DNA from: Escherichia phage HX01
Strand: one strand, 5' to 3'
Length of the DNA stretch: 64,000 nucleotides
Sequence record: NC_018855.1
Position 1 is the first letter of the stretch. Each line of letters begins with the position of its first letter. The notes beneath the pieces are model-generated. The model was given only the letters and a program-made list of their open reading frames with translations. It did no database searches and was not told the origin of the DNA. The position numbers and the translations under genes were made by a program. Below are positions 3,636 through 47,256 of the stretch, one piece after another.

Positions 3636-4045
3636 TGGCTAATAAATTTGAAGTTAATAAATGGTATCAGTTCATAGATAAACGTGCCCAAGAAGAGTTT
3701 ATTAAAGACCACACTGATAATGGGATTTATGCACGACGTCTTGGCATGGAGCCATTTAAAGTATTAGATGTTGACCATCTTGGACGTCCTACTAAACTTG
3801 TGACATCTACTGGCATGGTTGGATACGCAACAGGCGGTGATATCCTTGATGAAAACTTTATCTGGCTCTCCACAAATGAAGCAGAGTTCTTTGACGAAGT
3901 TGAAAATCCATATCAAGCGTCCGAAGAGCAAGATTCTGGTGAACTTGACGAATTGTCTGAATTTCCTGTGATGACGATTACTATCGAAAATAATGATCAG
4001 GCATGGTCTTTGTATCAAATGTTGAAAACACATTTTAAGGAATAA
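3635..4045 (+). CDS. Hypothetical acidic protein
   Basis: ORF track 3617-4045; ATG at 3635 overlaps the upstream stop (TAATG) and has an AAGGAAA RBS. Confidence 0.5.
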
Positions 4046-4047
4046 TA

Positions 4048-4227
4048 ATGCCATTATACGACTATAAATGTCAATCTGAAGATTGTGGCCATGAATATGA
4101 AAAAATTAAAAGAATTTCTGAACGAGAAAACGATGTTTGCCCTGAATGTCATCGTTTGTCTACTCGTCGGGTTTCTGCTCCTAAACATGTGAACGGTGGT
4201 TTTTACGACTTACTTAAGAAGGGTTAA
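4048..4227 (+). CDS. Small zinc-ribbon protein (CxxC...CxxC)
   Basis: 59 aa, below ORF-track cutoff; MPLYDYKCQSEDCGH...CPECH; tightly packed between neighbours. Confidence 0.45.
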   Translation: MPLYDYKCQSEDCGHEYEKIKRISERENDVCPECHRLSTRRVSAPKHVNGGFYDLLKKG

Positions 4228-4229
4228 TT

Positions 4230-4655
4230 ATGGCTTTTAAAGGTTTTGAAGTTGGTAAGAAATATCGTATTATCAAAGGACAGGAAGATAATTTCTTGAG
4301 AATTCTTAATACGACTGGTAAACGTCTTAATACTAATCTGCATACTACTTTGTTGTCCAAAGATTTTATTGTAGAAGAGATGATTGGTTACGGCGTTTCG
4401 GTTATTGCCGTAGAAGCCGTAGGCGATTATGGCCGAACTATTCATAGTATGCAAGGTGATATTCTGCTTTATGGTGCAGAATTTAAATTCTTTGAAGAAG
4501 TTCCGGAACCAGATACATCTGTCGATTTCAAAAAAGGCTCTGTAGAATTTGTTGATGGTTCGGTGATCGTATCAGGTGATGTGGTCATTACAGTTAAAAG
4601 TGAACAAGGGCGTTTGGCTGCAATTGATGCACTTCAGAAAATTAAATTTAAATAA
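4230..4655 (+). CDS. Hypothetical protein, positional and length equivalent of T4 goF (141 aa)
   Basis: 141 aa ORF followed directly by a UUCG hairpin terminator; sits upstream of gene 39 as goF does in T4; sequence identity not verified. Confidence 0.45.
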   Translation: MAFKGFEVGKKYRIIKGQEDNFLRILNTTGKRLNTNLHTTLLSKDFIVEEMIGYGVSVIAVEAVGDYGRTIHSMQGDILLYGAEFKFFEEVPEPDTSVDFKKGSVEFVDGSVIVSGDVVITVKSEQGRLAAIDALQKIKFK

Positions 4656-4673
4656 GGGCTTCGGCCCTTTTTG
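4655..4673 (+). terminator. Intrinsic terminator (GGGC-UUCG-GCCC plus T-run)
   Basis: AGGGCTTCGGCCCTTTTT immediately after ORF 4230-4655. Confidence 0.7.
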
Positions 4674-4696
4674 CTTTAGATTTCGGATGATAGAAT
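4669..4696 (+). promoter_or_regulatory. Putative MotA-dependent middle promoter
   Basis: MotA-box-like TTTGCTTTA at about -30, 12-nt spacer, TAGAAT -10; overlaps upstream terminator; precedes homing endonuclease. Confidence 0.45.
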
Positions 4697-4702
4697 ACCT
4701 TT

Positions 4703-5386
4703 ATGAAATACATAACATACTTAACAATATACACAGGCGATAAGTTGCCACCGTTTTATATAGGGTCTACTTATCTTGATAAACATACAAACAATTACTA
4801 TCATGGTACGGTAAAGTCGAAAAAATATAAACAAATTTATGATAAAGAGATAAAAGATAATCCTCATTTATTTGATTCATGTATTATTGGCGAATTTGAT
4901 ACACGGGAAGAAGCGACGTTTTGTGAGTTGTATTACCAGAAATTGCATAATGTGGTTAAATCTGAAAAATTTTTCAACATGTCTTATGCCACAGTTGATG
5001 GGTGCTTTGGTATGGATGTTTCAAAAGAGTTAAATCCATTTTATGGACATAATCACTCTGAAGAAACTATTGAACTACAATCCGTTATCAAGAAAGGCGA
5101 TCTTAATCCGATGTATGGAATTAAGCGCCCGGAACATTCTAAAGCAATGAGTGGCAAAAACAATCCATTTTATAATAAGAAACATACAAAGGAAGCGCTT
5201 ATAAAGTGTGGGCTTAAAAATCGTAAAAGTCCTGTATGGGAATATGAATCTGCTTTATATAAATTATGGTTAGAATTGGATAAACCAAAGGTTGGGAAAT
5301 TTGCTAAAGAAAGCATTAAACGTGGATTTCCGGAAGGTTCATACAAAAATATAGTCATGCAATTTGAGAGAAAATCTAATGATTGA
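4703..5386 (+). mobile_element. Free-standing GIY-YIG homing endonuclease (Seg-like) with NUMOD3-type repeats
   Basis: 227 aa; N-terminal YITYLTIYTGD...FYIGST (GIY-YIG); repeated NPFYG/NPMYG...HS(E/K) modules; 8-nt overlap with gene 39 start. Confidence 0.8.
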
Positions 5387-7199
5387 TAATAAAATTGAAA
5401 TGCTATCCGATAAAGAGCATTGTTTGAAGCGTCCTGGCATGTATATTGGAAGTGTTGCCAATGAAGAACAAGAACGTTTCCTATTCGGTGAATTTAAAAA
5501 GGTTAAATATGTTGCAGGTGTTCTCAAATTAATTGATGAAATTATTGACAACTCGGTAGACGAAGCTATTCGAACCAATTTCAAATACGCTAATAAAATT
5601 TCCGTTAGTATTGATTTAAATTCTAATAAAGTGACTGTTGAAGATAATGGTCGAGGTATTCCTCAAGAAACAGTTATTACTCCTGAAGGAGAAGAAATTC
5701 CAGGACCAGTTGCGGCGTGGACACGTACAAAAGCCGGTGGCAACTTTGGTGACGACAAAGAACGTGTTACGGGTGGACAAAACGGTGTCGGTTCTTCATT
5801 AACAAATATTTTTTCTGTCTCTTTTGTTGGCACTACTTCAGATTGTAAAAACGAATTGACAGTTAATTGTTCTAATAATGCTGATAATATTTCTTGGAAA
5901 TCTAAGCCGTCTAAAAACAACGGGACTAAGGTCGAGTTTATTCCTGATTTCTCTCATTTTGAAATGAATCAATTTGAAAAAATATACCAAGATATTACTA
6001 TAGACCGGCTCCAAACATTGGCAGTCGTTTATCCTGGCATTGAATTTAAATTTAATGGCAAAAAGATTCAAGGTAACTTTAAGAAGTTTGCTAAACAATT
6101 TGATGAAGAGGCCATCATTCAAGAACAAGACGGATGCTCTATTGCCATTGGTCGGTCACCAGATGGCTTCCGACATTTAACTTATGTTAATAACATCCAT
6201 ACCAAAAACGGCGGTCATCACATTGAATGTGTGATGGACGACATTTGCGAAGAATTAATTCCGGCTATTAAACGCAAATATAAAATCGACGTGACTAAAG
6301 CGCGCATCAAGGAATGTCTCACTCTCTTAATGTTCGTTCGTGGAATGAAGAACCTTCGTTTTGATTCCCAAACCAAAGAGCGTTTAACAAGTCCTTATGG
6401 CGAAATTCGGACGCATATTAAATTAGATACCAAAAAATTGGCAAAAAATATTTTGAATTCTGAAGCAGTTTTGATGCCTATAATTGAAGCAGCATTAGCT
6501 CGTAAATTGGCAGCAGAAAAGGCCGCAGAAACTAAAGCAGCTAAAAAGGCAACTAAAGCTAAGGTTCATAAGCATATTAAAGCTAACCAATGTGGTAAAG
6601 ATGCAGATACGACATTGTTTTTAACAGAAGGTGATTCGGCAATTGGTTATCTCATTGATGTTCGTGACCGTGAACTACACGGCGGATTCCCATTACGTGG
6701 TAAGGTGATGAATAGCTGGGGTATGTCATATGCTGATATGATGAAGAACAAAGAGCTCTTCGATATCTGTGCTATCACAGGTCTTATTCTTGGTGAAAAG
6801 GCAGAGAATACGAACTATCGTAATATTGCAATTATGACCGATGCCGATCATGATGGTCTTGGAAGTATTTATCCGGCTTTGCTTGCTTTCTTTAGTAATT
6901 GGCCTGAATTGTTTGAACAAGGACGTATTCGCTTTGTTAAAACGCCTGTAATTATTGCACAAATTGGCAAAACTCAAAAATGGTTTTATACTGTAGCTGA
7001 GTATGAAGAAGCTAAAGATACACTGCCTAAGCATAGTATTCGATACATCAAGGGATTGGGCTCCCTTGAAAAGTCAGAATATCGTGAAATGATTCAGAAC
7101 CCTGTGTACGACGTAGTTAAACTTCCTGAAAATTGGAAAGAACTCTTTGAAATGTTGTTGGGTGATGATTCAGAACTTCGTAAAGAATGGATGTCCTAA
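5379..7199 (+). CDS. 39: DNA topoisomerase II large subunit (GyrB-like ATPase), contiguous 39 plus 60-equivalent
   Basis: ORF track 5364-7199; start placed at MIDNKIEMLSD matching T4 gp39 N-terminus; GHKL ATPase and Toprim-like motifs; 606 aa with no split. Confidence 0.9.
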   Translation: MIDNKIEMLSDKEHCLKRPGMYIGSVANEEQERFLFGEFKKVKYVAGVLKLIDEIIDNSVDEAIRTNFKYANKISVSIDLNSNKVTVEDNGRGIPQETVITPEGEEIPGPVAAWTRTKAGGNFGDDKERVTGGQNGVGSSLTNIFSVSFVGTTSDCKNELTVNCSNNADNISWKSKPSKNNGTKVEFIPDFSHFEMNQFEKIYQDITIDRLQTLAVVYPGIEFKFNGKKIQGNFKKFAKQFDEEAIIQEQDGCSIAIGRSPDGFRHLTYVNNIHTKNGGHHIECVMDDICEELIPAIKRKYKIDVTKARIKECLTLLMFVRGMKNLRFDSQTKERLTSPYGEIRTHIKLDTKKLAKNILNSEAVLMPIIEAALARKLAAEKAAETKAAKKATKAKVHKHIKANQCGKDADTTLFLTEGDSAIGYLIDVRDRELHGGFPLRGKVMNSWGMSYADMMKNKELFDICAITGLILGEKAENTNYRNIAIMTDADHDGLGSIYPALLAFFSNWPELFEQGRIRFVKTPVIIAQIGKTQKWFYTVAEYEEAKDTLPKHSIRYIKGLGSLEKSEYREMIQNPVYDVVKLPENWKELFEMLLGDDSELRKEWMS

Positions 7200-35002: not shown

Positions 35003-35257
35003 ATGATTTTACGTTTTATTAATTCATATGGCACCACAATTTTTGAAATGAAAAATCCTACAGAACTAGATATCCCTTCGCCAAATAGTGAAATCACAGT
35101 TAAAGGTGAACGATTCATTTGCTATTCACATGAACGAATTTATGAATATCGTGAATTTTGTGGTGGTTACGGTATGGAAAAAGAACCATTGGTTTATTTC
35201 GATATCACAGTTTTGACTCCTAAAGAATACAAAGAAATTATTGCTAAGAATAATTAA
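35003..35257 (+). CDS. Hypothetical protein (nrdA.1 position)
   Basis: 84 aa ORF between td and nrdA. Confidence 0.5.
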   Translation: MILRFINSYGTTIFEMKNPTELDIPSPNSEITVKGERFICYSHERIYEYREFCGGYGMEKEPLVYFDITVLTPKEYKEIIAKNN

Positions 35258-35344
35258 CGCTTCAGTTTAAAAGTGTATAATAAATTAACGGGATAAATAC
35301 TATCCCGTTTGGAGTAATGTCTATCAACCTATACTGAGGAATAT

Positions 35345-37600
35345 ATGCAAGTAACTAAGAGCAGTGGTGTATCCCAAAATTTTGATGCACAGAAAATTAT
35401 TCAAGTATTAACTTGGCAATGTGAAGGAACACAAATCGACCCATATGAATTGTACGAAGAAATTAAGACCCATCTTGTCGATGGGATGAGCACCAAAGAT
35501 ATTCAGAAGATTTGTATTAAAGTTGCAGCTAACTCGATTTCTGTCGAAGAACCCGATTATCAATATGTTGCCGCTAAAGGATTAATGTTTGCACTTCGTA
35601 AAGATGTATATGGACAGTTTGAACCTCCTGCTTTTATCGACCATATTTCTTACTGTGTTAATGAAGGCAAATACGATCCCGAGTTGTTGTCTAGATATTC
35701 TGCAGAAGAAATCATTTATCTTGATTCTCAGATTAAACACGAGCGAGATTTCGACCTGACTTATGCTGGTGCTATGCAGCTTAAAGAAAAATACCTGGTT
35801 AAAGATAAAACAACTGGTAAGATTTATGAAACTCCCCAGTTTGCTATCATGGCTATTGGTATGGCCTTACATCAAGACGAAACTCATGACCGTTTGAAAC
35901 ATATTATTCGTTTTTATGATGCCGTTTCTACTCATCAAGTTTCATTGCCTACTCCAATTATGGCAGGTGCTCGTACTCCAACTCGCCAGTTCTCTAGTTG
36001 TGTAGTTATTGAAGCCGGTGATTCGTTAAAATCTATTAACAAAACTTCAGCATCAATTATTGAATATATTTCTAAACGAGCTGGTATAGGTATCAACGTT
36101 GGTATGCTTCGTGCAGAAGGTTCTAAGATCGGTATGGGTGAAGTTCGACATACGGGTGTTATTCCATTCTGGAAACATTTCCAAACTGCAGTAAAATCTT
36201 GTTCTCAAGGTGGTATTCGTGGTGGTGCTGCTACAGCGTATTATCCGATGTGGCACTTAGAAGTAGAGAACCTATTAGTTCTGAAAAATAACAAAGGCGT
36301 GGATGAAAACCGTATTCGACATATGGACTACGGAATTCAAATTAATGACCTTATGATGGAACGCCTTGGTAAAAATGATTATATTACTTTATTTAGCCCT
36401 CACGAAATGTCAGGCGAACTATACTACTCGTTCTTTGAAGATCAAGATAAATTCCGTGAGCTTTATGAGAAAGCTGAAAAAGACCCGACAATCAGAAAGA
36501 AAAGAATTAAAGCACTAGAACTCTTTGAATTGTTCATGACTGAACGTTCTGGTACTGCTCGAATTTATCCACAGTTTGTTGATAACACGAATAACTACAC
36601 TCCATTTATTCGTGAAAAAGCTCCAATTCGTCAGAGTAACTTATGTTGTGAAATCGCTATTCCAACTAATGATGTGAATGGCCCTGATGCTGAAATTGGT
36701 TTATGCACATTATCTGCTTTTGTATTAGATAAATTTGATTGGCAAGACCAGGATAAAATTAATGAACTTGCTGAAGTGCAAGTACGTGCACTTGATAACC
36801 TGTTAGACTATCAAGATTATCCGGTTCCAGAAGCTTTAAAAGCTAAAAAGCGTCGTAATCTTGGTGTTGGTGTTACGAACTATGCCGCGTGGTTAGCTTC
36901 TAACTTTGCTTCATATGAAGACGCTAACGATTTGACTCATGAATTGTTTGAGAGATTGCAATATGGCCTTATCAAAGCTTCAATCAAACTCGCCAAAGAA
37001 AAAGGATGTTGCGAGTATTATTCAGACACTAAATGGTCTAGAGGCGAATTACCTATCGACTGGTACAATAAAAAGATTGACCAAATCGCAGCCCCGAACT
37101 ACGTCTGTGACTGGGAAGAACTTCGAGCTGAACTCAAAGAACATGGAATTCGTAACTCAACGTTGTCTGCACTCATGCCTTGTGAGTCAAGCAGTCAAGT
37201 ATCAAACTCTACAAACGGGATTGAGCCCCCGCGCGGTCCAGTAAGTATTAAAGAATCTAAAGAAGGCAACTTCCGTCAGGTTGTTCCTAATATAGAACAT
37301 AACATGAGTCTTTACGACTACGCGTGGAAACTTGCTAAGAAAGGTAATAAACCTTATTTGACCCAAGTTGCTATCATGTTGAAATGGGTGTGCCAATCTG
37401 CTTCTGCTAATACTTACTATGACCCTGCAGTATTTGAGAAAGGTAAAGTGCCAATGTCAGTAATGCTTGACGATCTGCTTTACTTCTGGTACTTTGGCGG
37501 AAAAAATCTCTACTATCATAACACTCGTGATGGGTCAGGTACAGATGACTATGAATTAGAAACACCTAAAGCTGAAGATTGTTCTGCTTGTAAGCTTTAA
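35345..37600 (+). CDS. nrdA: Ribonucleotide reductase large subunit
   Basis: 751 aa; near-colinear with T4 NrdA, e.g. C-terminal ...DGSGTDDYELETPKAEDCSACKL. Confidence 0.95.
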   Translation: MQVTKSSGVSQNFDAQKIIQVLTWQCEGTQIDPYELYEEIKTHLVDGMSTKDIQKICIKVAANSISVEEPDYQYVAAKGLMFALRKDVYGQFEPPAFIDHISYCVNEGKYDPELLSRYSAEEIIYLDSQIKHERDFDLTYAGAMQLKEKYLVKDKTTGKIYETPQFAIMAIGMALHQDETHDRLKHIIRFYDAVSTHQVSLPTPIMAGARTPTRQFSSCVVIEAGDSLKSINKTSASIIEYISKRAGIGINVGMLRAEGSKIGMGEVRHTGVIPFWKHFQTAVKSCSQGGIRGGAATAYYPMWHLEVENLLVLKNNKGVDENRIRHMDYGIQINDLMMERLGKNDYITLFSPHEMSGELYYSFFEDQDKFRELYEKAEKDPTIRKKRIKALELFELFMTERSGTARIYPQFVDNTNNYTPFIREKAPIRQSNLCCEIAIPTNDVNGPDAEIGLCTLSAFVLDKFDWQDQDKINELAEVQVRALDNLLDYQDYPVPEALKAKKRRNLGVGVTNYAAWLASNFASYEDANDLTHELFERLQYGLIKASIKLAKEKGCCEYYSDTKWSRGELPIDWYNKKIDQIAAPNYVCDWEELRAELKEHGIRNSTLSALMPCESSSQVSNSTNGIEPPRGPVSIKESKEGNFRQVVPNIEHNMSLYDYAWKLAKKGNKPYLTQVAIMLKWVCQSASANTYYDPAVFEKGKVPMSVMLDDLLYFWYFGGKNLYYHNTRDGSGTDDYELETPKAEDCSACKL

Positions 37601-42176: not shown

Positions 42177-43262
<1,086 letters not shown>

Positions 43263-43263
<1 letters not shown>

Positions 43264-43944: not shown

Positions 43945-43974
43945 GTTTACAACATGGTGGAGTTGTGATACTAT
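43945..43974 (+). promoter_or_regulatory. Early-type promoter (GTTTAC-18-TACTAT)
   Basis: GTTTACAACATGGTGGAGTTGTGATACTAT. Confidence 0.5.
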
Positions 43975-44239: not shown

Positions 44240-44359
44240 TGAGAGCTATCTCATTACTATCGAGAATGGTCATAAATCTGAGCACTACCAACTTAGCCTG
44301 TCTAATCCGGTTAAAGGTATTGTTGAATCAGAATCTGTTTATATCTCCTAAGGATTGTT

Positions 44360-45352
44360 ATGTTACCTGTCATCAGAAAACTTATTTCTCCAAAAGAACT
44401 GGCTGAGATTATTCCTTTGTCGGAAGCTTACGCATCACAAGTGGCTTCTCATCGCGAACAAGTTAATTCGATTATGAATGGTGAAGACCCACGCAAACTT
44501 ATTGTTGTAGGTCCTTGTTCAATTCATGACCCTATTGCTGCTGTTGAATACGGCAAACGTCTGGCTGAACTTCAAACTCGTCTTCCTAATGTTCTGTTAG
44601 TGATGCGCGTTTATTTTGAAAAGCCTCGAACTACCGTAGGTTGGAAAGGTCTTGTAAATGATCCATATCTTGACGGAAGTTTTGATATGAACCACGGTCT
44701 TATAGTTGCACGAACATTGTGTCGTAAACTTCTACGTATGGGACTTCCATTAGCAACTGAAGTATTAGACCCATTCACGATTAAGTATCTTTCTGGTATT
44801 TTCTCATGGGTTGCTATTGGCGCCCGTACGACTGAAAGTCAGACACATCGTGAAATTGCTTCAGGTCTACCGATGTGCGTAGGCTTCAAGAACGCAACCA
44901 ATGGTTCTATTAAAGTAGCTACAGACGCGATGTATAGTGCCGCCTGGCCTCATCGGTATATGGGTATGGACGTCGATGGTACTGTAGGCATTGTTGAAGC
45001 TGAAGGTAATCAGAATACGCATATCGTATTGCGTGGCGGGACTAACGGCCCGAACTATCATTCTTCTGATATTCAAGAAGCTTCTAACAAAGCAAGTGCA
45101 GTAGGTCTGAATCATTATGTAATGGTTGACTGTAGCCATGCAAACGCTGATGGGTATTATAGCAATCAAATTGGTATTGGTAAAAATTTAGCAGCTAATG
45201 ATTTGGTCAAAGGAATTATGATAGAATCATTCCTACATGAAGGAAATCAAAAAATTTCTGATAATATGTCCTATGGCGTTTCCGTTACCGATGCGTGCAT
45301 CGGTTGGGAACAAACTAAAGAGCTGTTAACTTATATTAATAAGGTTCAATAA
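44360..45352 (+). CDS. 3-deoxy-D-arabino-heptulosonate-7-phosphate (DAHP) synthase homolog, class I AroG/F/H-like
   Basis: 330 aa; motifs LIVVGPCSIHD, KPRTTVGWKGL, GARTTESQTHRE, VGFKNATNG, DCSHAN, IMIESFLHEGNQ, SVTDACIGWE align with E. coli AroG active-site segments; RBS AAGGA. Confidence 0.85.
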   Translation: MLPVIRKLISPKELAEIIPLSEAYASQVASHREQVNSIMNGEDPRKLIVVGPCSIHDPIAAVEYGKRLAELQTRLPNVLLVMRVYFEKPRTTVGWKGLVNDPYLDGSFDMNHGLIVARTLCRKLLRMGLPLATEVLDPFTIKYLSGIFSWVAIGARTTESQTHREIASGLPMCVGFKNATNGSIKVATDAMYSAAWPHRYMGMDVDGTVGIVEAEGNQNTHIVLRGGTNGPNYHSSDIQEASNKASAVGLNHYVMVDCSHANADGYYSNQIGIGKNLAANDLVKGIMIESFLHEGNQKISDNMSYGVSVTDACIGWEQTKELLTYINKVQ

Positions 45353-45933
45353 TGAAAGCTAGCACATATCTTCAAATTGCTTATTTGATTTCTCAAGAAT
45401 CAAAATGTTGTTCATGGAAAGTTGGTGCCGTCATTGAAAAAGATGGACGCATTATCTCTACTGGATATAATGGCTCACCCGCAGGTGGCGTTAACTGTTG
45501 TGAACATGCATCCGAAAATGGTTGGTTGAAGAATAAACCAAGCCCGGTCATCGTTGCTGGACATAAAGAAGGCACTACAGCATTTGGACGGGCAGATAAT
45601 TTTGTTTTGGCTAAAGAACATCGGGCCGCTCATAGTGCATGGTCTGCTAATAATGAAATCCATGCAGAATTGAATGCAATTTTGTTTGCAGCTCGTAAAG
45701 GTAATTCTATTGAAGGTGCTACGTTATATACTACGCTTTCTCCATGTCCTGATTGCACTAAAGCTATTACGCAGTCAGGTATTAAAAAGGTTGTATACGC
45801 AGAATTATACGATCGATCTCCTGAAAATTGGGCAGACATTCTAAAACAAGCCGGTATTGAAGTAATTCAGTACTCTCGTAATAATCTTCGTTCTCTGAAT
45901 TGGGAACAAATCCGAAACTTTTGTGGTGAATAA
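45352..45933 (+). CDS. cd: dCMP deaminase
   Basis: 193 aa (T4 193 aa); zinc motifs HAELNA and PCPDC. Confidence 0.92.
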   Translation: MKASTYLQIAYLISQESKCCSWKVGAVIEKDGRIISTGYNGSPAGGVNCCEHASENGWLKNKPSPVIVAGHKEGTTAFGRADNFVLAKEHRAAHSAWSANNEIHAELNAILFAARKGNSIEGATLYTTLSPCPDCTKAITQSGIKKVVYAELYDRSPENWADILKQAGIEVIQYSRNNLRSLNWEQIRNFCGE

Positions 45934-46231: not shown

Positions 46232-46258
46232 TATGCTTTACGAATAGTATGGTATTAT
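46231..46258 (+). promoter_or_regulatory. Putative MotA-box middle promoter upstream of gene 31
   Basis: ATGCTTTA, 12-nt spacer, then TATTAT. Confidence 0.35.
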
Positions 46259-46994: not shown

Positions 46995-47256
46995 GTTAAA
47001 TCGAGGAGCCGTCGAATTGTCTGATTATCGATTTGCGAATCGGTATGTTTTAGAAGTACCGCCCCGACAATTTTACGGTGTACCTCTTGAATGTTACTAT
47101 CATGCGTCAGAAAAGTGTTATCTGTGTAAGTCTTGGTGGTATGATGACGAGGTTTATGGTTATCCTGTCGTTAAATATCCAAAACCTATGTTCCCCTTGA
47201 GGGCTTGAGCAGGCAATGTCAATAAGTCCTGCATTTTCATTTAAAGAGAATTTATA

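Follow-up and report, generated by a model that had tools for sequence, protein, structure and literature searches.

Why should a T4-like phage encode the entry enzyme of the shikimate pathway? The question is raised by a single 330-amino-acid (aa) open reading frame (ORF), with an ATG start and a TAA stop, located at 44360–45352 on the + strand of a 64,000-nucleotide stretch of Escherichia phage HX01 (NC_018855.1), which is referred to below, at its full length, as the window. A preliminary description of the window, made without database searches, had recognized in this ORF a class I 3-deoxy-7-phosphoheptulonate synthase (DAHP synthase, DAHPS) of the AroF/AroG/AroH type, and had named as checks a profile search, an alignment with AroG, AroF and AroH, a structure prediction and a survey of T4-like genomes, all of which are reported here. 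The explanation that best accounts for the results as a whole, at a probability that we put at roughly 0.42, is that the gene encodes a catalytically competent, feedback-insensitive DAHPS which keeps chorismate, and hence prephenate, available for an O2-independent hydroxylation of cytosine.

Identity and Active Site of the Enzyme

Profile matches, alignment and predicted fold confirm the ORF as a type Iα (AroF/G/H-type) DAHP synthase, as had been claimed. Its translation holds all six of the motifs quoted in the preliminary description (LIVVGPCSIHD, KPRTTVGWKGL, GARTTESQTHRE, DCSHAN, IMIESFLHEGNQ and SVTDACIGWE) and matches Pfam DAHP_synth_1 (PF00793; E = 1.5e-74, 250.8 bits against a cut-off of 25.5), the NCBIfam aroFGH equivalog TIGR00034 (427 bits against 173.2) and NF009395 (454.5 bits against 343). 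The isozyme-specific NCBIfam cut-offs are missed, both for AroG (365 bits against 568) and for AroH (385 bits against 463). The best solved relative is Escherichia coli AroF (PDB 6agm, E = 2.9e-104), and the identity to E. coli AroG, AroF and AroH is 48, 51 and 45%, respectively, over the full length. An AlphaFold (AF2) model built with 87 homologues reaches a mean pLDDT of 93.6 and, in Foldseek, superposes on AroG and Neisseria DAH7PS structures (5cks, 1gg1, 1kfl) with a TM score of 0.96 and a root-mean-square deviation of 1.3–1.4 Å. DAHP synthases account for every one of the 21 sequence matches in the PDB and for the 50 best fold matches.

The phage protein thus modelled shares with E. coli AroF, AroG and AroH the fold, the residues that bind metal, phosphoenolpyruvate (PEP) and erythrose-4-phosphate (E4P), and the regulatory β-hairpin: the (β/α)8 barrel keeps the β6a/b hairpin (extra strands, residues 198–214), and its N-terminal extension is shortened. 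Like the Tyr-type AroF lineage, it has Gly at the position of AroG Ser211. It differs from the three isozymes in lacking about 8–11 N-terminal residues, in the replacement of the inhibitor contacts and in its phage-like codon usage.

Conservation was assessed in an alignment of 27 phage-clade and 95 bacterial homologues together with AroG, AroF and AroH. The metal ligands C61, H268, E302 and D326 of AroG correspond to C53, H260, E289 and D311 of the phage protein and are invariant in the 27 phage and 95 bacterial sequences, in agreement with the earlier statement that the Cys, His, Glu and Asp residues are conserved. The PEP ligands (R92, K97, G163-A164-R165, K186 and R234 in AroG numbering) are invariant in the 27 phage-clade sequences. 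The ligand roles of the aligned residues are those that we take to hold in the AroG structures. In part they are supported by PMC9529685. The catalytic features of the gene are the following:

44360..45352, + strand: DAHPS coding sequence, type Iα (3-deoxy-7-phosphoheptulonate synthase), phage clade, 330 aa (profile and structure matches)
44516..44518, + strand: Cys53 codon (AroG Cys61), metal ligand (alignment with AroG/F/H)
44621..44635, + strand: KPRTT motif, residues 88–92 (AroG 97–101), binding of the PEP carboxylate and of E4P (invariant in 27 of 27 phage-clade sequences)
45137–45139, + strand: His260 codon, metal ligand (alignment)
45224–45226, + strand: Glu289 codon, metal ligand (alignment)
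45290–45292, + strand: Asp311 codon, metal ligand (alignment)

With this complement of residues the protein is very probably an active DAHPS, predicted to form DAHP from PEP and E4P.

Remodeling of the Inhibitor Site

The positions that set the phage clade apart were taken to be those fixed in at least 95% of the clade at which a different residue is conserved in at least 85% of bacteria (27 phage against 95 bacterial sequences). Only seven of the 330 positions qualify (AroG P150I, Q151K, D155G, L156I, S180P, F209Y and T223A), and all seven lie in the feedback-inhibitor site. The pocket residues of the phage clade (I, K, P, Y and G) occur in 26–27 of the 27 sequences; their bacterial counterparts P, Q, S and F occur in 88–93 of 95, and D155 in at least 85%. 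A second difference concerns the N-terminus, where 8–12 residues precede the position of AroG Pro19 in all 27 phage sequences, against 16 or more in all 98 bacterial ones (AroG/F/H included). On the gene, these changes are placed as follows:

44360..44392, + strand: shortened N-terminus, about 10 residues before the AroG Pro19 position; the arm formed by AroG residues 1–8 is absent (alignment)
44780..44800, + strand: remodeled allosteric segment I141-K142-Y-L-S-G146-I147 (AroG P150-Q151...D155-L156), with four of the seven fixed substitutions
44870..44872, + strand: Pro171 codon (AroG Ser180); Pro in 27 of 27 phage sequences, Ser in 92 of 95 bacterial ones
44957..44959, + strand: Tyr200 codon (AroG Phe209)
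44999–45001, + strand: Ala214 codon (AroG Thr223)

From the AroG–Phe structure and from N-terminal mutants of AroF, we take it that the arm gives Asp6, Asp7 and Ile10 to the inhibitor site of the neighboring subunit. The remaining positions are documented in AroG itself. The Phe or Tyr inhibitor is held through its main chain by the side chains of Q151 and S180, a salt bridge of D155 stabilizes the site, and P150L, S180F and F209A/S are feedback-resistant mutants, P150L fully so (PMC9529685).

As judged from the alignment, the inhibitor site of phage DAHPS is remodeled while the catalytic machinery is unchanged. With the fixed substitutions all in the inhibitor site and no N-terminal arm to close it, the classical feedback by Phe, Tyr or Trp has probably been lost. 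The idea that the phage bypasses host feedback inhibition, one of the roles suggested in the preliminary description, thereby gains in-silico support. The phage changes fall at the same positions as those of engineered or selected feedback-resistant enzymes (AroG P150L, S180F, F209A/S and Q151 variants; Corynebacterium glutamicum AroF E154/P155 variants). By contrast with such variants, the phage enzyme combines several changes with an N-terminal truncation and conserves them across genera, and its resistance is a prediction.

Two bacterial metagenome DAHP synthases (P0094 and P0114) are also altered in the pocket (S180P, Q151G, F209H) and are placed as sister of the phage clade by neighbor-joining (NJ). 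They may represent a related unregulated lineage, or their position may reflect long-branch attraction.

Spread, Age and Selection of the Phage Gene

The presence of DAHPS in phages is not new, as it is annotated in well over 100 T4-like genomes, and most records label it phospho-2-dehydro-3-deoxyheptonate aldolase, AroF, AroG or DAHP synthase. By megablast the gene has matches in 144 phage records, of which 138 reach 98.7% identity or more; the HX01 gene is 99.8% identical to annotated Mosigvirus genes, and the HY126 copy 99.5%. By tblastn, 211 phage records carry a homologue, of which about 197 are intact members of the clade. The same gene lies in the slot between pseT and cd in ST0 (YP_009608453), HY126, JS09, PEi20, Marfa, CHI14, Pm5461 and KLB31, at identities from 99.8 to 56%. 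This slot is occupied in Mosigvirus, Kanagawavirus (PEi20, 77% aa identity), Marfavirus (67%) and Bragavirus (58%), and IMG/VR contigs that match Serratia CHI14 and E. coli EcS1 in genome size show the same pseT and cd flanks. In the survey of T4-like phages, at least six genera keep DAHPS in the pseT–cd slot. No T4-type (Tequatrovirus) record is found among the 211 with a homologue, and the statement that the canonical T4 gene set lacks it is thereby borne out; the number of phage records with a PseT homologue is 2,895. The label "hyperplastic region," given to the locus in the preliminary description, holds insofar as the gene does sit between pseT and cd, but the slot is the same across Mosigvirus, Kanagawavirus, Marfavirus and Bragavirus.

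Phage DAHPS is mentioned in the literature at the level of annotation, as a domain or as an auxiliary metabolic gene (AMG) (PMC8022965, PMC11845039). A full-text literature search returned such annotation mentions only, and no functional study of phage DAHPS, of its regulation or of its link to other phage genes.

All of 200 NJ bootstraps recover the phage clade as monophyletic. Since it is only about 50–55% identical to any bacterial homologue, no recent donor is apparent. The GC content at third codon positions (GC3) is 0.29, as in the neighboring phage genes, against 0.50–0.57 for E. coli aroF and aroG. Between genera, the ratio of non-synonymous to synonymous substitution rates (dN/dS) is 0.17–0.20, and by this measure DAHPS is under purifying selection in phages. 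In GC3, dN/dS and monophyly, the gene follows the pattern of an AMG of cellular origin that has been ameliorated and is maintained by selection. Within Mosigvirus, dN/dS is uninformative, as the 138 records are at least 98.7% identical and differ at about 10 positions per pair.

One copy is broken. In phage vB_EcoM_G53 (MK327943, where 201–1248 corresponds to 44360–45352 of the window), a perfect 55-bp tandem duplication follows nucleotide 693 of DAHPS and shifts the frame after about residue 249, with the loss of His260, Glu289 and Asp311; the record carries a misc_feature only. The G53 copy was either knocked out in nature or misassembled.

About 14 matches in the phage collection fall outside the clade, namely "Bacteriophage sp." fecal contigs (MT83xxxx), MD-2021a contigs and a 2.4-kb "S.Kent" record. 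Three record types, MT83xxxx "Bacteriophage sp.," "Acinetobacter phage MD-2021a" (accessions beginning with CAKLQ) and OR85xxxx "S.Kent," hold bacterial-type aroF and yegQ/trhP, and some of their contigs span 150–300 kb. These records are probably host DNA filed as phage, and inflate the counts of phage AMGs. A scan of IMG/VR with a DAHPS profile yielded 80 loci, 10 of which are T4-like with pseT/cd context; the others are bacterial-type aroF–tyrA neighborhoods or contigs from giant-virus metagenome-assembled genomes. In several of the giant-virus and other IMG/VR contigs the DAHPS ORF reaches about 650 aa, twice the normal length, which implies fusion with another domain.

The U32 Protein and the DNA-Modification Cluster

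In phage ST0, a cluster beside the DNA polymerase gene encodes a SIS-domain protein (annotated as arabinose-5-phosphate isomerase), a nucleotidyltransferase/kinase fusion, a Peptidase_U32 protein and a homologue of thymidylate synthase (TS). This cluster makes the arabinosylated 5-hydroxycytosine that replaces cytosine in RB69 and its relatives, including HY126: the phage TS homologue makes 5-hydroxy-dCMP with flavin and O2, and an unusual sugar donor is made from arabinose-5-phosphate (PMC13326640). The U32 protein, gp50 in RB69, is given no role beyond "sugar or heterocycle reductase" in that study, where prephenate, shikimate and DAHP are unmentioned (PMC13326640). The ST0 protein matches Pfam PF01136 (Peptidase_U32) with 42.4 bits against a cut-off of 22.4, and the gene is present in ST0 (35097–36257 as retrieved) and HY126, and at 99% identity or more in some 150 Mosigvirus records.

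U32 proteins of bacteria connect hydroxylation with the shikimate pathway. RlhA forms 5-hydroxycytidine (ho5C) in 23S rRNA and depends on Fe-S cluster biogenesis, on aroB/D/E/A/C and on the chorismate mutase activity of either PheA or TyrA (PMC5727448), a set of requirements from which it follows that prephenate is needed. TrhP is the prephenate-dependent, O2-independent partner of the O2-dependent TrhO (PMC6599085), and prephenate is the oxygen donor for UbiU/UbiV (PMC10990095). As TrhO is paired with TrhP in the formation of 5-hydroxyuridine (ho5U), so the phage cluster pairs an O2- and flavin-dependent 5-hydroxy-dCMP synthase with a U32 protein; the modification is a C5 hydroxylation of cytosine, as in RlhA, and the phage lineage also holds prephenate-making genes (DAHPS and, in sister genera, a chorismate mutase). 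Unlike RlhA and TrhP, the phage protein would act on a deoxynucleotide or on DNA, and at every genomic cytosine rather than at single RNA positions; it is also very divergent and has one motif Cys missing. Its E185 and C192 fall on E161 and C169 of RlhA, its C209 falls on the third motif Cys, and an extra C-terminal CX4C...CX2C cluster is present. The identity to the E. coli paralogues is 18–19%, and the sole NCBIfam match is UbiU, with 19 bits against 440.

Across genera, U32 is 81–89% identical, against 56–77% for DAHPS and, in the comparable genera sampled, 45–66% for PseT. By this comparison of sequences, the constraint on U32 is unusually strong for a protein to which no function is assigned.

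A genome-wide cytosine modification that uses prephenate as a co-substrate is also found in Synechococcus phage S-B43, whose CmoA/CmoX pathway makes carboxymethylcytosine. It differs in relying on the chemistry of carboxy-S-adenosylmethionine (Cx-SAM) rather than on U32 hydroxylation, and no phage shikimate-pathway gene is reported; the availability of prephenate is flagged by its authors as an open question (PMC12783734). The full-text literature search found no paper joining U32, prephenate and phage.

Co-distribution of DAHPS, U32 and Chorismate Mutase

Distributions were compared through tblastn counts by organism (first word of the name) and by host, and through sampled records. With the ST0 U32 protein as query, 220 phage records are hit, none below 80% identity; for DAHPS the number is 211. 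By organism, the numbers of records are:

Escherichia: U32 in 135, DAHPS in 123
Klebsiella: U32 in 26, DAHPS in 25
Shigella: U32 in 14, DAHPS in 12
Proteus: U32 in 7, DAHPS in 7
Serratia: U32 in 7, DAHPS in 6
Enterobacter: U32 in 4, DAHPS in 4
Edwardsiella: U32 in 3, DAHPS in 3

Host tallies are equal for the two genes in E. coli O157:H7 (13), LF82 (13) and K. pneumoniae (11), and likewise in Serratia ATCC 39006 (6), K-12 MG1655 (5) and S. sonnei (4). By these organism and host counts, the DAHPS of the clade appears confined to genera that carry U32. The arabinose-5-phosphate isomerase is distributed differently, with 57 Acinetobacter records and without Klebsiella among the ten organism names listed, so that DAHPS tracks U32 and not the arabinose pathway. 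In the tblastn record sets, phages of Acinetobacter, a strict aerobe, are without U32, chorismate mutase and DAHPS, though the same base is made there (PMC13326640).

The Kanagawavirus Entb_45, an Enterobacter phage, encodes a 79-aa AroQ chorismate mutase (CM; Pfam CM_2, 40.9 bits against 27) between the U32 and 5-hydroxy-dCMP synthase genes. In this region (3989–6092) the U32, CM and TS-homologue genes overlap stop-to-start (5161/5158 and 5397/5394), an arrangement that suggests translational coupling. Homologues of the CM occur in 51 records, from Kanagawavirus, Marfavirus-type Klebsiella phages, Serratia/Erwinia/Kosakonia phages, PM2, Yersinia Tegunavirus, EcS1, Shewanella Thanatos, and Providencia and Morganella phages. 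The gene adjoins the synthase gene wherever a synthase is annotated, and U32 where the record shows U32. At the place where other genera hold an AroQ of 75–79 aa, Mosigvirus has a 79-codon frame with one in-frame TAA (ST0 36254–36493 as retrieved), which gives no Pfam match, even at E ≤ 10; it may be either the remnant of a chorismate mutase gene or a small gene of other descent.

Prephenate Supply as the Proposed Purpose

In the mechanism that we propose, DAHPS would be made early from the pseT–cd transcription unit. Ignoring aromatic amino acids, the enzyme would push carbon via the host shikimate enzymes to chorismate, and entry into the pathway would continue while host AroF/G/H is repressed or inhibited, for example in gut contents rich in aromatic amino acids. 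Chorismate would be converted to prephenate by the phage CM in the sister genera, or by host PheA/TyrA in Mosigvirus, and the U32 protein would use prephenate for an O2-independent hydroxylation that would lead to 5-hydroxycytosine and back up the O2-dependent synthase. That prephenate is supplied for such a U32-dependent anaerobic route is put forward here tentatively. We are more hesitant about the broader picture, in which DAHPS, the mini CM of the sister genera and the U32 Fe-S protein would form a viral oxygen-donor supply line that lets phages of facultative anaerobes hydroxylate every cytosine without O2. In such a supply line prephenate would donate the oxygen, alongside the O2/flavin-dependent 5-hydroxy-dCMP synthase, and the rebuilt allosteric pocket would have either lost its function or come to respond to a product of the pathway.

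The quantities would be considerable. With about 64,000 cytosines per genome (169 kb, 37.7% GC) and a burst of 100–200, the demand can be roughly estimated at about 10^7 hydroxylations per cell, a noticeable share of the whole flux into aromatics in a growing E. coli cell. Such a demand would lie far above the output of a repressed, feedback-inhibited pathway in rich medium, and would rationalize a deregulated entry enzyme. The changes at the DAHPS feedback site and the association with U32 and CM appear to be undescribed in the accessible literature.

Several observations weigh against prephenate supply as the purpose of the gene. On the side of the chemistry, the TS homologue alone yields 5-hydroxydeoxycytidine aerobically, with incorporation of 18O2 (PMC13326640), and for this reason a second hydroxylation route is hypothetical; moreover, the phage U32 protein has Tyr, not Cys, at the position of the essential C176 of RlhA. 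On the side of the genome, some 60 kb separate DAHPS from the modification cluster, which falls outside the 64-kb window, its presence in HX01 being deduced from near-identical genomes. Mosigvirus has no recognizable chorismate mutase, and host PheA/TyrA would therefore have to serve. Nor is the association of the genes complete, since RB69 has U32 and no DAHPS, and the Tegunavirus phiR1-RT and PM2 have U32 and CM and no DAHPS. It is drawn from counts and sampled records, and the co-distribution is one among related genera, which are not phylogenetically independent and may owe the genes to very few ancestral acquisitions, or to just one. The IMG/VR scan brought up no independent lineage of viruses in which DAHPS adjoins U32, none of its non-T4-like loci having U32 near DAHPS, and a search for other U32-bearing phages with E. 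coli TrhP as query gave only short fecal or contaminant fragments and no independent replicate. As the G53 gene is frameshifted, DAHPS would also be dispensable in the laboratory.

Alternative Explanations

The main rival, somewhat unlikely in our estimate, is that DAHPS is a general AMG that provides more Phe, Tyr and Trp for phage proteins after the shut-off of host transcription. This is the reading given in genome papers (PMC11845039, PMC8022965), and a deregulated DAHPS is the classical means of raising aromatic flux (PMC9529685). The reading also fits a phage proteome moderately rich in Tyr and Phe: in the ORFs of the window with at least 150 aa, Phe, Tyr and Trp together make up 9.95% of residues, somewhat above the roughly 8% of E. 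coli. However, such a demand is common to all T4-like phages, yet none of the DAHPS-bearing records sampled is T4-type, even though PseT is found in 2,895 records, and DAHPS appears by counts limited to U32-bearing lineages. The stand-alone CM is embedded in a DNA-modification cluster and not among amino-acid genes, and the roughly 102 kb of ST0 annotation covered, out of 170 kb, show no enzymes of the Phe, Tyr or Trp branches. Rich habitats also let the host import aromatics, so that extra synthesis is least needed where deregulation matters. A different outlet of chorismate, the common precursor (PMC5727448), would be folate, made via p-aminobenzoate for the dTMP and folate enzymes, or quinones for energy. 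The neighborhood of nucleotide metabolism is in keeping with this, with cd directly downstream and frd and td about 10 kb upstream, but folate and quinones are used catalytically and needed in small amounts, T4 has frd, td and cd without DAHPS, and the CM of the sister genera commits chorismate to prephenate, away from both branches; we hold this outlet to be improbable.

The preliminary description had also raised, as a speculation, the condensation of PEP with another aldose phosphate such as arabinose-5-phosphate. Phage DAHPS would then resemble 3-deoxy-D-manno-octulosonate 8-phosphate (KDO8P) synthase, a member of the same Pfam family, and serve the arabinose or sugar pathway of a lineage that draws its sugar donor from this very compound (PMC13326640) and, in ST0, encodes the isomerase. 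This role is disfavored, to the point of being very improbable, by the distribution of the gene, which follows U32 and not the isomerase: Klebsiella phages (mostly Marfa/F48-like) have DAHPS, U32 and CM, and Klebsiella is not among the ten names listed for the isomerase, while Acinetobacter phages have the isomerase and no DAHPS. Consumption of arabinose-5-phosphate would, in addition, compete with arabinosylation. The KPRT motif separates enzymes of the DAHPS type from the substrate motif of the KDO8P synthase type. Since KPRTT is invariant, as are all residues for E4P, PEP and metal, and since the best matches are all DAHP synthases (TM 0.96 to AroG) with no KdsA among the PDB and top fold matches, a KDO8P-type role was rejected.

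A decaying or functionless passenger would fit the absence of the gene from RB69, its disruption by the 55-bp duplication in G53, and the differences within Mosigvirus (2 synonymous against 7–8 non-synonymous), which are too few to show selection. It is hardly credible for a gene that is intact in about 197 records, occupies the same slot across at least six genera at a dN/dS of 0.17–0.20, keeps all of its 20-plus catalytic residues invariant and has a fully phage-like codon composition; residue conservation and dN/dS contradict a dead gene. The last alternative concerns the pocket itself, which may still be allosteric and answer to a new effector, for example prephenate, chorismate or a phage nucleotide, bound among the Ile-Lys, Pro and Tyr residues. 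Ten of 13 pocket positions are at least 95% conserved, against 133 of 330 overall (p = 0.007), which could point to a new effector instead of none and is a further point against a feedback-insensitive enzyme. The substituted residues are near-invariant across genera just 53–77% identical overall, the β6a/b regulatory hairpin is kept in the model, and the exchange of Gln for Lys brings a positive charge that would suit an anionic ligand. The same residues, however, lie at the tight-dimer interface, where structural constraint alone could account for their conservation, and the phage protein lacks the N-terminal arm by which the AroG site is completed; we hold a new effector to be rather improbable.

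Gene Neighborhood and Expression

The HX01 window is that of a JS09-like Mosigvirus and aligns to phage ST0 at 96–99% across about 52–116 kb of ST0. The gene order is pseT, four or five small ORFs, DAHPS, cd, gene 31 and rIII, with frd and td about 10 kb upstream of DAHPS. The small ORF upstream of DAHPS terminates at 44351, and the adjacency of DAHPS and cd is kept in PEi20 and Marfa. The surrounding features, including candidate sites for transcription, are:

42364..43263, + strand: pseT (polynucleotide kinase/phosphatase), upstream landmark of the conserved slot
42956..42980, + strand: MotA-box-like site, farther upstream (consensus scan)
43946..43974, + strand: sigma-70-like promoter candidate TTTACA-17-TACTAT with TG (consensus scan)
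44350..44354, + strand: Shine-Dalgarno sequence AAGGA, 5 nucleotides upstream of the ATG, overlapping the TAA of the preceding small ORF (sequence)
45352..45933, + strand: cd (dCMP deaminase), directly 3' of DAHPS in the same transcription unit; its ATG shares one base with the DAHPS TAA (TAATG)

The placement of the ORF between pseT and cd, with a good ribosome-binding site (AAGGA at a spacing of 5 nucleotides), is as first described. Early or middle expression of DAHPS from the pseT–cd unit is plausible, because pseT, DAHPS and cd follow each other on one strand with no terminator in between, and promoter-like sites lie upstream. No + strand terminator is found between 41500 and 47200 in the terminator scan, and the MotA-box-like pattern TGCTTNA-N10-14-TANNNT occurs 17 times in the window against 6.4 expected, a number reached in none of 100 shuffles. 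The earlier claim that the gene is likely expressed early agrees with these features, but as to timing it is a deduction, and the sigma-70 consensus scan of the window gives no enrichment over shuffles; the terminator scan is likewise not enriched. Copies of the MotA-box-like pattern lie, for example, at 42956–42980 and 46234–46258, and one copy is found just 5' of gene 31. Directly 3' of rIII, about 100 bp of HX01 (46995–47093) are absent from ST0, an indel in an intergenic or small-ORF stretch.

Implications

Phage DAHPS represents a natural multi-site "feedback-resistant" design of a flux-controlling shikimate enzyme, as predicted from its inhibitor site, and its sequence is a candidate deregulated DAHP synthase for metabolic engineering. 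For the biology of these phages, the question is one of oxygen: the only demonstrated route to 5-hydroxy-dCMP needs O2, and the hosts live largely without it. A second, prephenate-dependent route would, if true, explain three orphan genes at once and answer the question of the prephenate source raised in the literature on phage modification. It would also be the first case of a phage reprogramming the shikimate pathway for DNA hypermodification, and the U32 protein would be the first hydroxylase of its family to act on a precursor of DNA.

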